From assembly GCA_030693235.1 (NCBI GenBank), contig JAUYBE010000004.1, positions 1-59,114 of the forward strand: a stretch of 59,114 nt of DNA. Direction: 5' to 3'. The stretch is from a bacterium (GTDB lineage Bacteria > Patescibacteriota > Minisyncoccia > UBA6257 > UBA9933). Positions 28,072 to 35,005 of the stretch are shown piece by piece; within the stretch, counting starts at the first letter, position 1, and each line of letters starts with the position of its first letter. Position numbers and translations under genes: made by a program. The notes beneath the pieces are model-generated. The model saw nothing but the letters and a program-made list of their open reading frames with translations, was not told the origin of the DNA and did no database searches.

Positions 28072-28268
28072 ACATAACAACGCATATCTGGCTACATCCC
28101 GCCCTTCATTTTATATAAATCAAGGAATGGCGGGACTCCGCCCAAATTTTCATCCCTTAGTTCGATGAAGATTTAGGCGGAGATAATTAAACAAAGCATT
28201 GTCTGAAATCAAAAAGTTTATCCTGCTAAGTCGTGATGAAAACTTCAGATGATGCGTAAACGTTGTGC
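28072..28268 (+). repeat. attC-like site 1 (197 bp)
   Basis: ACATAAC-AACGCATATCTG...CCCAAAT...AAAACTTCAGATGATGCGTAAAC-GTTGTGC. Confidence 0.85.
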
Positions 28269-28311
28269 GAAATCCGCATTTGCCCTAGTGCTAAAAATAA
28301 CATTCAACAAT

Positions 28312-28890
28312 ATGACAACGAAAAACTGTATAATAATTCATGGATGCCCCTCTGACGCAGAAAAAGCAATGGATACTAAAACAAGAACCTACGATAAGCA
28401 TTGGATTCCGTGGACTAAAAGAAATCTTATTGCAAAAAACATAGAAACGGAAACTCCTCTCATGCCCTCGCCTTGGCAACCTGATTATGAAAAATTTAAA
28501 GCTGAGTTCGAAAAATATGCTGTCGGCGAAAACACAATCTTGGTTGGACATAGTTGCGGTTGTGCATTTTTGGTTCGCTGGCTTGGTGAGACAAAGACCA
28601 AAATTTTTAAACTTTTTTTAGTCGCACCGTGGAAAATTCCGCAGGAAAAAAGAAATGGCGCTGATGTGGATTTTTACACTTATCTCATTGATCCGACAAT
28701 AAAAGATAGGGTCGCTAAAATCGTAATGTTTACCGCCGATGACGAAGAGGGTGACGGCAAAAAAAGTTTAAAAATTTTTCATGATGTGCTTGGCGGCGAA
28801 ATTATTGAGTTGCCAGGACGAGGGCATTATTGTTTGGGTGATATGAAAACCGAGGAGTTTCCTGAATTATTAGAAAAGATTTTGCAATAA
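28312..28890 (+). CDS. cassette 2: RBBP9/YdeN-family alpha/beta hydrolase
   Basis: IIIHG, W.PW, LVGHSCG nucleophile elbow, LVAP, DD, GH. Confidence 0.9.
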   Translation: MTTKNCIIIHGCPSDAEKAMDTKTRTYDKHWIPWTKRNLIAKNIETETPLMPSPWQPDYEKFKAEFEKYAVGENTILVGHSCGCAFLVRWLGETKTKIFKLFLVAPWKIPQEKRNGADVDFYTYLIDPTIKDRVAKIVMFTADDEEGDGKKSLKIFHDVLGGEIIELPGRGHYCLGDMKTEEFPELLEKILQ

Positions 28891-28935
28891 GATTTCGGGG
28901 CATCCTTAAATCACGGACGGGCAAATGCGGACATC

Positions 28936-29063
28936 GCATAACACGGCATATCTGGCTCGGAAATTTCACACTTTATAATAAATTAAGGAAAGTGAAATTT
29001 CCTCTCCCAAATTTTTGTTCCGTTTCACTACACAAAAACTTCAGATATCGCGAAACGTTAGGC
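28936..29063 (+). repeat. attC-like site 2 (128 bp)
   Basis: GCATAAC-ACGGCATATCTG...CCCAAAT...AAAACTTCAGATATCGCGAAAC-GTTAGGC. Confidence 0.85.
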
Positions 29064-29201
29064 GACATATTTTTGAAAAATTTGTTAATTGAAATGTTTT
29101 TGGTGGGCTTTAAGAAATAAGGAATTTGATTTTTTTACTATATTTAGTATAATAAGGGGTAATAGAATGATTTATAAATTTTAATTTTTAAAATAACCAT
29201 T

Positions 29202-29645
29202 ATGTATTTTTGGAAAATCAATAAACTAAAAGAGGATTTGCTTAAACATCCACTTTCAGAAAGTGAGCTATTTAAGTATTTGCTTGCAACTACCATTATG
29301 TATAGTTTAGCAATGATACCTTTTTTAGAAAATAATCTTTGGGATGTTTATTCTGCGATTGTGATGGGGATGATCACTGTTTTTGGTACTATTTATATTT
29401 ATAGATGTAATAATGGAGATAAAGGAAACAATTTTCTTCAAAAATATCTTTCTATAGGATGGGTCATAAGCATTAGATGGATTGTGCTCATTATGTTGCC
29501 AGCTATGATTGTATATTTTATAGCACTCGCAATTTATTCAGGTTTGCCAGAAAGTACTACTCTATCTGATGTAATATTTTTTAACTTATTGTTTATGTCA
29601 TACTTTCGACTGTTTGGTAAACACATTAAAGATGTAGCAAAATAA
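29202..29645 (+). CDS. cassette 3: hypothetical membrane protein
   Basis: 147-aa, 4 TM. Confidence 0.7.
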   Translation: MYFWKINKLKEDLLKHPLSESELFKYLLATTIMYSLAMIPFLENNLWDVYSAIVMGMITVFGTIYIYRCNNGDKGNNFLQKYLSIGWVISIRWIVLIMLPAMIVYFIALAIYSGLPESTTLSDVIFFNLLFMSYFRLFGKHIKDVAK

Positions 29646-29837
29646 AATAATCTTAGTTGTAAAATAAGTATTTGAAAAATGGAATTCACCCCCAGTGCCT
29701 CTTCCATTTTTCAAAAAAATCAAATACAAATAGAAAAAGCCCACCAAAAACGAATAATAAGGATAAATTTTTCAAAAATACGCTTCGGGGTCGTTGCACT
29801 TAATTTTCTTCTGTTATCACTACAGAAAATTACCCTC

Positions 29838-29935
29838 GCCTAACACAGTATATCTGGCTCGCTCCTGCCGTCGCTCGACCCATATTTGCCTCCGTTTCAC
29901 TACGCAAAAACTTCAGATATGCCGAAACGTTGTGC
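29838..29935 (+). repeat. attC-like site 3 (98 bp)
   Basis: GCCTAAC-ACAGTATATCTG...CCCATAT...AAAACTTCAGATATGCCGAAAC-GTTGTGC. Confidence 0.85.
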
Positions 29936-30006
29936 GAAATTCACTCCGTGCGCACTGAACACAATTGTAGTAAAATTTATTAACTTAGCAAAATAATCGC
30001 TATATT

Positions 30007-32667: not shown

Positions 32668-32741
32668 GCCATAATAAAAAGCCTTTTTTATTTTTTTATA
32701 TAATTTTGGCAATTTATTTTACAAATAACTACGAAAAAAAT

Positions 32742-33095
32742 ATGGAAAAATATGAATCTGGAAAAATTAAAGATGAACGATTAAATACTTTCGGAATGGC
32801 GCCGAAGGAATGGCAGGATTTTTTTGTAGCTTTTAAAAAGATAAGAAGTGAGGTTCTTGGTAAAATATTTAGTCTTGATTCGCAAAAGAAAAAAGTATAT
32901 TTGGAAAAAATAAACGAAAAACAAAAAGAAGCATTCTCTTCAGTTGATGAACCTTCTAAGTATTTAATTTACCACCAATCCATAGGTGGTTCAACGGGGC
33001 CAGTATATTCTCCAAAATTAGACTTTGAAGGTGATTATTCGCTTTTAAAATTTTATCAAGAAATTTTGAGAGAGTTAGATGATAACAAAAAATAA
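32742..33095 (+). CDS. cassette 7: hypothetical protein
   Basis: ATG at 32742 inside the cassette shell; no family recognised. Confidence 0.65.
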   Translation: MEKYESGKIKDERLNTFGMAPKEWQDFFVAFKKIRSEVLGKIFSLDSQKKKVYLEKINEKQKEAFSSVDEPSKYLIYHQSIGGSTGPVYSPKLDFEGDYSLLKFYQEILRELDDNKK

Positions 33096-33155
33096 CGGAA
33101 TAAAAATAAATTGCCAAAATTATTTTACATTAAGGAAGAGACTTTTTATGACGGC

Positions 33156-33352
33156 GTATAACAACGCATATCTGGCTACAGGAAAATCACTCAAATGTAT
33201 ATTATGGAATGTGATTTTCCCTCCGCCCAAATTTTCATCCCTTAGGTTGATGAGGATTTAGGCGGAGATAATTAAATAAGGCATTGTCTGAAATCAAAAG
33301 ATTATCCTGCTAAGTCGGGATGAAAACTTCAGATGATGCGTAAACGTTAGCT
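33156..33352 (+). repeat. attC-like site 7 (197 bp, close relative of site 1)
   Basis: GTATAAC-AACGCATATCTGGCTACA...CCCAAATTTTCATCCCTTAG...AAAACTTCAGATGATGCGTAAAC-GTTAGCT. Confidence 0.87.
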
Positions 33353-33459
33353 GAAATAATAAAAAATATTTTTTCGCCCTGTCGGTCGATTAAATCGGGG
33401 CAAATTTATTTTTTATTTTTACGTAGCTCAAATTTAATTAAAAACTAATCAACAAAATT

Positions 33460-33972
33460 ATGAAAGAATCAAAACAATTTGAAGGCACTACACCGCCTCA
33501 AGAGCGTAAAACTAATGAGCCAAAAAATTTTGGCGAGTTTCTTCCAAGGGTCGCAAATTTAACAGGCAGACCAATAGAAGAACTTAAGAAGAGTTTTGGA
33601 GAAAGTTGGTACAATGAAGAAATAAATACAGAACTACTTGAAAAAATTGAAAATGGCACGAAAGAATTTATAGAATGGGCTGCATTAGGAGAAATAGGAA
33701 AATATTCTCATGAGGAAGGTAAATCTAAATTAGCTGATTATGAAGCAGTTGCAATGGCCATGAGAGCCTATAAGACGGCAAAAATATTAGAAAAGCAGAA
33801 TCCAGTTTTATGTGCCGATCATTCAAAATTGGAGGAAAAATTTAATGAATTTGAAAAAGAAATGCAGAAGCTTGAAAAAGTAGATACTTCGGAAAATAAA
33901 ATTGCCCGACAAATTCTACTTCAAGGCAGGAATGCAATGGCTTATTTATTAGACAAAAATCTTGCAAAATAA
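33460..33972 (+). CDS. cassette 8a: hypothetical protein
   Basis: 170-aa helical ORF; no family recognised. Confidence 0.65.
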   Translation: MKESKQFEGTTPPQERKTNEPKNFGEFLPRVANLTGRPIEELKKSFGESWYNEEINTELLEKIENGTKEFIEWAALGEIGKYSHEEGKSKLADYEAVAMAMRAYKTAKILEKQNPVLCADHSKLEEKFNEFEKEMQKLEKVDTSENKIARQILLQGRNAMAYLLDKNLAK

Positions 33973-34029
33973 AAAATAAATTTACATCGATTAGTTTAAC
34001 TATTCGCCCAAATGCGATATAATTAAGGC

Positions 34030-34875
34030 ATGGAAAATAACAGAAATGAAAATACTCACATCGCCATTTTTAAAGGCAAAACCATTAGGAGAACGCTATT
34101 TCAAAAAGAATGGTGGTTTTCGGTTACTGATGTTTGCGGCGTGCTTACCGATAGTTCCGATTCAGGTGCGTATTGGAGAAAGCTAAAACAACGGCTCATT
34201 GAAGAAGGGAGTGAAGTCGTGACATTTTGTCACGGTTTGAAATTGCTTGCTCCGGACGGAAAAATGCGTGAAACTGATTGTGCCAATACTGAAGGCATGT
34301 TCCGCATTATCCAGTCAATTCCCTCGCCAAAAGTCGAACCGCTTAAACGTTGGTTAGCGAAAGTTGGTTATGAACGGATACAAGAAATTGAAAATCCTGA
34401 ATTGGCGACAAAACGGACAAAATTACTCTATAAGTTAAAAGGTTACCCTGAAGATTGGATTGAAAAGCGAATGCGAGGCATCGCCATTCGCGAAGAATTG
34501 ACCGATGAATGGAAAAAACGGGGCGCGGAAACCGACCGCGATTATGAAATCTTAACAGCGGAAATTTCGCAGGCAACTTTCGGCATAAAACCGAATGAAT
34601 ACAAAAAATTTAAAGGACTAAGGCGCGAGAATCTCCGCGACCACATGGATGACTTTGAATTGATTTTAACTATGCTCGGTGAAAGGACAACCACTGAAAT
34701 CCACCGTACCAAAGATTCAAAAGGAGTGCCTCGACTCAAAGACGACGCCCGTCTTGGCGGTGAAGTGGCTGGCACGGCCAGAAAACAAATTGAAAGACGA
34801 ATCGGCCGGCCAATAGTTTCAAAAAGTAATTTTTTGAAAAATAAAGAGATTAAAAGATTGAAAAATAAAAAATAA
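34030..34875 (+). CDS. cassette 8b: Bro-N domain DNA-binding protein
   Basis: 'IRR.....EWWFSV.DV..VLT', 'LKL.A.DGK.R.TD', 'IIQSIPSPK.EP.K.WLA.VGYER'. Confidence 0.88.
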   Translation: MENNRNENTHIAIFKGKTIRRTLFQKEWWFSVTDVCGVLTDSSDSGAYWRKLKQRLIEEGSEVVTFCHGLKLLAPDGKMRETDCANTEGMFRIIQSIPSPKVEPLKRWLAKVGYERIQEIENPELATKRTKLLYKLKGYPEDWIEKRMRGIAIREELTDEWKKRGAETDRDYEILTAEISQATFGIKPNEYKKFKGLRRENLRDHMDDFELILTMLGERTTTEIHRTKDSKGVPRLKDDARLGGEVAGTARKQIERRIGRPIVSKSNFLKNKEIKRLKNKK

Positions 34876-34929
34876 AATTGCCCCGATTCACTTTCGCTTA
34901 ATCGGCGAAAAAGAATTTTTTATTACATC

Positions 34930-35005
34930 GCCCAACACGGCATATCTGGCTCCGCTCCGCTACACCCAAATGCTTCGCGCTTCAGATGATGCGTGAACGT
35001 TATAC
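34930..35005 (+). repeat. attC-like site 8 (76 bp, minimal)
   Basis: GCCCAAC-ACGGCATATCTG...CCCAAAT...CTTCAGATGATGCGTGAAC-GTTATAC. Confidence 0.85.

Follow-up and report, generated by a model that had tools for sequence, protein, structure and literature searches.

In canonical integrons, attC sites are 57-141 bp long and have a two-sided unpaired spacer and a variable tip that can be branched in chromosomal integrons; the integrase IntI binds two or three extrahelical bases, which lie in the L'' arm when the bottom strand is folded (PMC5027507). The same source cites the use of single-stranded substrates by XerCD, and a paper on archaeal integrons describes IntIs that do carry the extra domain of this integrase family (I2). 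Integron recombination is thought to need this extra domain, which reads the extrahelical bases. The stretch of DNA analysed here, called the window, is 59,114 nt long (positions 1 to 59,114 of contig JAUYBE010000004.1, assembly GCA_030693235.1) and comes from a bacterium of the Patescibacteriota, within the candidate phyla radiation (CPR). Between positions 28,072 and 35,005 it contains eight imperfect palindromes next to a tyrosine recombinase gene. A full-text literature search found no paper on integron-like arrays or such sites in CPR/Patescibacteria.

The eight repeats are likely the attC equivalents of an integron-like cassette array, with folded dif-like sites in which the inner arm is split. 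On sequence grounds the array would be served by the adjacent short IntI/XerA-like recombinase, and folding calculations suggest that the sites are probably active as a folded bottom strand, so that recombination would take place via single-stranded DNA with the recombinase binding the split arm. The CPR site family has neither the extra domain nor the extrahelical bases and keeps a precise architecture.

Fold and covariation of the sites

All eight sites had the same order of elements, which was AAC, an 11-bp stem, hairpin 1, CCCAAAT, hairpin 2, ACTTC, the returning stem strand and GTT. The AAC..GTT spans were 68-189 nt, or 76-197 nt including the 4-nt flanks. A preliminary description of this DNA had listed eight sites with this shared order, and every listed element was found in the sequence at its place; direct reading also bore out CCCAAAT in seven sites and CCCATAT in site 3. 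The hairpin arms that it quoted were all present and pairing, but sites 3 and 8 had no stable hairpin 1, just its conserved base. Hairpin 2 of site 8, earlier given as almost nothing, was present as AAATGC-TTC-GCGCTT. The spacer asymmetry held in 8/8 sites, with 1 nt (A) on the left and 4 nt (AAAC, ATAC or GAAC) on the right, and the extra bases had been placed correctly on the right arm, where the extra G of sites 1, 7 and 8 lies. The lengths with flanks also agreed with the description, but the claim that they lie beyond the attC range applied to a minority, since just 13 of 49 family members were longer than 141 nt.

For the wider family, 32 distinct sites were parsed by sequence anchors, their loops were trimmed, they were aligned with MAFFT (alignment A1), and a structure was written by hand. 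A covariance model (R1) was built from A1, and its 51 distinct matches were aligned as A2. The anchored parsing and the covariance model replaced a stem-only AAC..GTT detector, which was noisy and strand-blind. The E-values given for R1, and for the model R2 below, are rough values from a shortened calibration. A covariance-model search of CPR sequences had been proposed in the preliminary description, and the R1 search of 502 kb of related CPR contigs gave 56 matches (51 distinct) that were linked to the recombinase. In the loci, all matches lay upstream of a recombinase homologue and on the recombinase-sense strand. Over the 59-kb window the model returned exactly the eight sites (E 1e-19 to 7e-7), with no further match. 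The exclusive position and polarity of the matches rule out selfish palindromes that have no relation to the recombinase.

A surrogate attC model (R2), which is not that of IntegronFinder, was made from 14 canonical sites that had been extracted both from class 1 arrays and from an integron of Aliivibrio. R2 recovered held-out attC sites (L067 at 7e-6, L064:2182 at 0.01) and, at E-values up to 10, detected none of about 45 CPR sites. The R1 search of canonical attC arrays gave no match. As judged by the surrogate, the sites are unlike canonical attC, as had been claimed.

Covariation analysis showed that 87.2% of paired cells in A1 were complementary, versus 70.3% (sd 0.9) after shuffling and 29-46% with the partners slid by 1-3 columns. 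Cells changed on both sides numbered 205 (72 shuffled, 30-52 slid), and the covariation score was 0.427 (0.142 shuffled, 0.05-0.12 slid). Compensatory changes were found at 10/11 stem pairs, 6/9 hairpin-2 pairs and 5/5 hairpin-1 pairs. For A2, 88.2% of paired cells were complementary, versus 69.7% shuffled. The compensatory change in the stem and both hairpins, in A1 and A2, is in line with the earlier proposal that covariation implies a selected three-way junction. RNAalifold on A1 independently predicted the core, the stem and hairpin 2; hairpin 1, whose helices MAFFT does not align, was missed. Past its base, hairpin 1 was a real helix in about two thirds of the sites (z < -2 in 20/32), and the shortest family sites still kept a 3-bp mini-hairpin at its position.

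Some sites were hybrids. Sites 2 and 3 had two mismatches each among the 4 variable central pairs, and the right central GCCG of site 3 was the exact complement of the left CGGC in sites 2 and 8. The left and right stem strands of L002:8705-8831 showed no match at all.

The CCCAAAT motif had been described as a conserved linker, which was not what the alignments showed. Its AAAT pairs with the ACTT of ACTTC, and hairpin 2 begins with these 4 bp. The initial C of the motif pairs with the second G of the conserved post-stem GGYT (48/49 sites) and so closes hairpin 1; just two bases are left unpaired, and in this 2-nt linker the middle base of the motif varied as G/T/A/C without compensation. The first AAAT/ACTT pair was invariant and the second covaried (A-T in 36 sites, T-A in 8). 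CCCATAT accompanied ACATC in six sites, site 3 of the window, with ACTTC, being the exception. The third pair was A opposite C on the top strand, that is G.T on the bottom strand, in 46/49 sites and A-T in two. Past these pairs, hairpin 2 had free, compensated sequence. The base of hairpin 1 is conserved: read on the bottom strand, it has a G-C pair, one covarying pair and a tandem G.A (5'-GA/5'-GA), which corresponds to C/T mismatches on the top strand.

Two related arms were recognised in the fold. The R' arm (46 sites; 11 nt from the TT of GTT) had the consensus TTATnCGAAAT, and the L arm (32 sites; AAAT preceded by the final 7 nt of the left stem strand) had the consensus ATATnCGAAAT, with the complements ACATCGnATAA (R'') and ACTTCGnATAT (L'), respectively. 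The R' consensus resembles the XerD arm of Escherichia coli dif, which we take to be TTATGTTAAAT. The expected identity of R' and L was 0.656 in register, 0.07-0.36 in eight shifted registers and 0.38 when the L arm was read contiguously into hairpin 1. Between the arms, the left strand has 6 nt (C, A and four covarying bases) and the right strand has 9 nt, of which three are bulged. At position 10 both arms have A.C on the top strand, which corresponds to G.T on the bottom one. No base of the right strand is left unpaired at the junction (ACTT-CAGATAT), and therefore the stem and hairpin 2 can stack as one helix. Since the last 7 stem bp plus the first 4 bp of hairpin 2 match the R' consensus, the folded site is an 11-6-11 dif-like core. 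Two inverted related 11-bp arms around a 6-8-bp centre, the dif-type arrangement, were thus present in the fold (centre of 6 bp), with the L arm discontinuous. A better explanation of the AAAT of CCCAAAT is that it makes up positions 8-11 in a second recombinase-binding arm of 11 bp and copies the GAAAT/ACATC by GTT/AAC, and from its sequence ACTTC can be read as the counterpart of the ACATC/GAAAT just outside AAC/GTT.

Recombinase, array and strand

The gene directly upstream of the array, on the opposite strand, codes for a 271-aa protein with Pfam Phage_integrase (7e-43) and a SAM_4 N-domain. It barely passed the NCBIfam XerA_Arch model (archaeal XerA/integron integrase; 222.4 bits, cut-off 220) and was far under the cut-offs of the bacterial XerC and XerD models. 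It scored 202 bits with integrase_gron (TIGR02249), under the cut-off of 265, because the match, in two pieces, skips profile positions ~176-251. In the alignment to VchIntIA (2a3v), residues 4-172 corresponded to 5-176 and residues 194-270 to 241-317. There are 21 aa where IntI has 64, so that ~43 aa of the extra domain are absent. The IntI-specific extra domain (I2, around patch III) is thus missing; this alignment and the integrase_gron skip agree with the earlier statement that the recombinase is without I2. The protein was equally similar to archaeal XerA structures and to VchIntIA. Homologues 50-90% identical were found in metagenome-assembled genomes labelled Portnoybacteria, Parcubacteria, Moraniibacteriota, Nomurabacteria, Falkowbacteria, Buchananbacteria and Saccharibacteria. 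The Chryseobacterium plasmid NZ_CP041688.1 (16041-16832) also encodes a recombinase, which is 39.7% identical across 96% of the query and is annotated as "site-specific tyrosine recombinase/integron integrase"; it may be a non-CPR relative of the platform.

The region from 27.4 to 35.0 kb contained eight co-oriented gene blocks, and after each block came a repeat with ..TAAC on one side and GTTA.. on the other. The cassette products were a serine hydrolase, an EamA transporter, a RibD/DHFR-like protein and a methyltransferase (Pfam), and several blocks had no Pfam match. The features of an integron array were present, namely co-oriented cassettes, imperfect palindromes bounded by AAC/GTT, and an attI adjoining the recombinase gene. 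The attI junction was at 27426, and the TCGCATATAAACGA|GTT junction was kept in loci L002, L015 and L032. The junction adjoining the recombinase gene reads ...TTTAAACGA|GTTATGTGAAAT, with the cassette start present and the site interior absent, and L002 was alike. The arrays of L015 and L032 are 99% identical with different first cassettes, and their identity begins exactly at the TAAC of attI, which suggests that, as in integrons, strands are exchanged at G|TT (bottom-strand AA|C). An exchange at G|TT, together with the geometry of tyrosine recombinases, would point to the bottom strand. Top-strand recombination at the left AAC was rejected, as the attI junction carries no site interior.

The computed DNA folding energy was lower for the bottom strand in 45/49 sites (mean 2.2 kcal/mol, Wilcoxon p = 5e-8), and this advantage is due to the conserved G.T and G.A positions. 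Beside AAC, too, the bottom strand has G.T where the top strand has A.C. The better-folding bottom strand is antisense to the cassette genes. The coordinates of the features are shown in Table 1, together with the parts of site 4, the exemplar.

Table 1. Coordinates of the recombinase gene, the attI-like core, the eight sites and the parts of site 4 in the window
Feature	Coordinates	AAC..GTT	Strand	Remarks
Tyrosine recombinase, IntI/XerA-like, 271 aa	26508..27323		-	directly upstream of the array, opposite strand
attI-like core	27410..27437		+	left arm CGTCGTCTTTA, 6-nt centre AACGAG, then TTATGTGAAAT = start of cassette 1; read from sequence
Site 1, with 11-nt outer arms	28067..28273	28076-28264	-	R1 52.2 bits, E 6e-11
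Site 2	28931..29068	28940-29059	-	R1 66.7 bits, E 5e-15
Site 3	29833..29940	29842-29931	-	CCCATAT with ACTTC; no stable hairpin 1; R1 49.6 bits
Site 4, exemplar	30978..31088	30987-31079	-	R1 83 bits, E 1e-19
Site 5	31639..31828	31648-31819	-	R1 57.9 bits
Site 6	32513..32672	32522-32663	-	R1 75.6 bits
Site 7, near-copy of site 1	33151..33357	33160-33348	-	R1 48.5 bits
Site 8, minimal form	34925..35010	34934-35001	-	R1 37.7 bits, E 7e-7
Site 4, R'' arm	30978..30988		+	GGGTCATATAA
Site 4, 6-nt central region, left strand	30989..30994		+	CACGGG
Site 4, L arm positions 1-7	30995..31001		+	ATAAAAG; junction-proximal 7 bp of the stem
Site 4, hairpin 1, side branch	31002..31026		+	closing G to first C of CCCAAAT
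Site 4, 2-nt linker	31027..31028		+	CC
Site 4, L arm positions 8-11	31029..31032		+	AAAT, first 4 nt of hairpin 2
Site 4, remaining hairpin 2, variable cap	31033..31057		+	
Site 4, L' arm	31058..31068		+	ACTTCTTTTAT; unbroken through the junction
Site 4, 9-nt central region, right strand	31069..31077		+	CCCGATACG; 3 nt bulged
Site 4, R' arm	31078..31088		+	TTATACGAAAT; start of next cassette

In the proposed mechanism, the outer R arm (bottom strand ATTTCryATAA | C) would be cleaved and exchanged at AA|C, corresponding to G|TT of the top strand. The 6-bp central region would have free covarying sequence and a 3-nt bulge on the cleaved strand. The inner L arm would be formed by the last 7 stem bp stacked on the first 4 bp of hairpin 2, with the consensus of the R arm; hairpin 1 would branch off between arm positions 7 and 8, and the rest of hairpin 2 would be a variable cap. 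CCCAAAT and ACTTC would be conserved as the binding place of the second recombinase monomer. The correct strand would be marked, and the L-bound monomer silenced, by hairpin 1 together with the 3-nt bulge and the G.T wobbles, which are A.C mismatches on the other strand; in classical integrons these tasks fall to the extrahelical bases and I2. A wider proposal is put forward tentatively, as possible rather than likely: that there is a CPR integron lineage with sites folded as dif mimics, in which an I2-less Xer-like recombinase binds two copies of one 11-bp arm, an obligatory hairpin splits the inner copy, and the hairpin, the bulge and the position-10 G.T choose the strand. If true, the lineage would be an extant form midway between Xer/dif recombination and classical integrons, and would offer a second way of achieving strand selection in single-strand recombination.

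Further features of the cassettes were recorded. Between 27426 and 34936 each cassette is bracketed by a long inverted repeat of its own, whose pairing halves lie just past GTT and ahead of the next AAC; it reaches up to ~60 nt in cassettes 1, 2, 7 and 8, and in a circular cassette it would lengthen the site stem far past the arms. The same shell was found in cassettes 1 and 8, with unrelated genes inside, and their shared 3' shell (28033-28053 and 34892-34910) has a terminator-like hairpin followed by a T run. Past the last site, 35011-35110 resembles the shell start of cassette 7 (ATACGCCATAATAAAAAGCC...TTTTGGCAATTTATTTT), and there was no gene or closing site between it and a convergent 661-aa gene; this segment may be what remains of a cassette start, or else the original attI flank. 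The tail of cassette 4 (30895-30980) and the short loops of sites 3, 4 and 8 were full of CGCTACGCT / CCGCTCCGCT-type words, and Aliivibrio attC loops hold similar CGCTGCGCTCG words. Comparison of L015:4097-4292 with L032:5400-5605 revealed differences in ~45 nt of the next cassette start and in the site; in the same stretch, 56 nt at the end of the preceding cassette differed slightly, and the sequences were then unrelated.

The loops of the hairpins also contained recurrent words. In 10/17 long hairpins, the hairpin-1 loop had TTATAAT...(T)AAGGA(G/A)(T/A)G just 5' of the returning stem strand (28105-28130, 28975-28992, 31685-31700 and 33195-33212; also in L002, L006, L010, L026, L030 and L050). 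This motif resembles a -10 box with a ribosome-binding site, and no conserved reading frame follows it. A conserved peptide from hairpin 1 (AAGGAG then GTG/ATG) was rejected, as the frame relative to CCCAAAT varies among sites. Hairpin 2 carried an insert of near-constant length, 88-103 nt, in several sites (28148-28240, 31719-31797 and 33233-33325; also L010, L026, L030 and L055), and some of these inserts had an extended -10-like TGnTATAAT facing the next cassette (31723-31752). This may be a promoter inside the site. A promoter/terminator scan gave counts no higher than in shuffled sequences, with no terminator within a site.

Alternative explanations

The sites could also be double-stranded and dif-like, the right half (L' arm, 9 nt, R' arm) being a duplex Xer site used for two-strand exchange between direct repeats, as proposed for pdif modules. 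Such a half-site does hold two inverted arms of a shared consensus, the recombinase scores as XerA-like, and hybrid sites with mismatched centres exist (sites 2 and 3; L002:8705-8831). A duplex-only mechanism gives no reason for the two halves to covary at 10/11 stem positions including the centre, or for the hairpins to be maintained by compensatory change. Differing central regions block two-strand exchange in known tyrosine recombinases, and the centres differ between neighbouring sites, so this explanation is unlikely. It is quite unlikely that CCCAAAT is a single-stranded linker at the three-way junction, with the recombinase recognising the junction in place of I2 and the extrahelical bases. 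The motif is the most conserved interior part and the junction is present in every site, but AAAT is paired with ACTT, with covariation at the second position and a change from G.T to A-T in two sites, the first C is paired with a conserved G, and the middle base changes without consequence. Moreover, GAAAT/AC(A/T)TC recurs next to the AAC/GTT core, a place without a junction.

An ordinary attC of a sedentary chromosomal integron would account for the AAC...GTT cores, the co-oriented cassettes and the attI by a divergent recombinase gene; branched tips are known in chromosomal attC sites (PMC5027507), and G after AAC and T before GTT occur in canonical sites too. The branching would then be a long variable tip, and the motif would come from recent descent in one array, as in the Vibrio cholerae repeats (VCRs). 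This is very improbable, given a recombinase without the IntI-defining domain, an L'' without extrahelical bases and with all extra bases on the other arm, the blindness of the surrogate attC model and the empty reverse search; in addition, the motif is kept across recombinases 50-82% identical in many CPR classes while the stems diverge. It is hardly probable at all that the conserved fold belongs to RNA and serves the cassette genes on either side as, for example, a terminator, a processing site or a regulator. Transcription of the sites is probable, given their place between genes of one orientation, and some loops have promoter-like or ribosome-binding-like words; however, the better-folding strand is antisense to the genes (45/49 sites), which also makes the RNA target of selection allowed by the preliminary description unlikely, and conserved positions are mismatched (A.C and C/T) on the sense strand. 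An Rfam search of 26000-36000 matched no family, there is no terminator inside the sites, and the recombinase-exclusive link and the attI boundary are facts at the DNA level.

Several observations count against the folded, split-arm explanation preferred here. The distal boundary between L015 and L032 was not sharp at GTT, as ~45 nt past GTT also differed; this pattern is not predicted by a simple G|TT exchange, and one possible cause is homologous recombination between similar shells. The A1 sites were picked partly by stem complementarity and A2 was fitted to the model, although neither hairpin was used in the selection. Past its base, hairpin 1 is nearly absent in the sites outside the two thirds with a real helix, sites 3 and 8 among them, and about a quarter of all sites have hardly any of it. 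Outside the invariant positions, sporadic G.T and A.C cells were balanced (20 vs 20), and therefore the strand call rests on a few conserved positions together with the computed energies. The dif-like core is palindromic, so each duplex half-site also reads arm, centre, arm. Contigs from three groundwater DNA runs broke at the repeats and gave no usable excision or circle joints, and no recombination product, whether an excised circle or an empty site, was seen.

Comparison with known systems

The split-arm reading names the bases predicted to be contacted by the recombinase, the strand taken and the marks of polarity. The architecture ties integrons to Xer/dif recombination and bears on the origin of integrons. 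R1 can serve as a search tool for CPR cassette arrays, of which standard finders would miss the integrase and probably the sites.

Like the attC sites of integrons (IntI; class 1 cassettes and Vibrio VCRs), the CPR sites are imperfect palindromes bounded by ..AAC/GTT.., with one after each co-oriented cassette, and the attI adjoins a divergently transcribed tyrosine recombinase. As in attC, the stems are free in sequence and conserved in structure, the length is variable and the bottom strand is favoured; the CPR AACG...TGTT also closes with G.T, as canonical sites do. Unlike integrons, the CPR recombinase has no I2 and the L'' arm has no single extrahelical bases: among 32 sites, L'' never carried an extra single base, and the extra G (7/32 sites) and the 3 extra spacer bases were all on the right arm. 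The asymmetry is, as had been noted, unlike that of canonical attC, since it lies on the arm opposite the canonical extrahelical bases (PMC5027507). The CPR sites have a 3-nt bulge on the cleaved arm and not a two-sided unpaired spacer. Their outer arms reach 8 nt past AAC/GTT, and their junction is conserved in sequence, unlike that of attC, because the hairpin splits the L arm. Hairpin 1 nevertheless exits on the L'' side, in the 3' half of the bottom strand, at a point flanked by the positions that extrahelical bases take in canonical sites; the junction may, as had been suggested, stand in for I2-based recognition.

Two inverted dif-like halves in one folded strand are also seen in the attP(+) of CTX-phi and in folded XerC/XerD substrates at dif. 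The CTX-phi attP(+) fold mimics a duplex of two 11-bp arms with a short centre containing unpaired bases, and its one-strand exchange is resolved by replication. Unlike CTX-phi, the CPR system has many sites, exchangeable cassettes, one dedicated recombinase gene and a hairpin-split inner arm, and has no phage. The pdif modules of Acinetobacter plasmids, in which XerC/D sites flank resistance modules, are likewise gene modules bounded by Xer-type sites (PMC7399989). Unlike the CPR sites, pdif is a plain 28-bp duplex in alternating orientation, with no hairpins and no adjacent dedicated recombinase.

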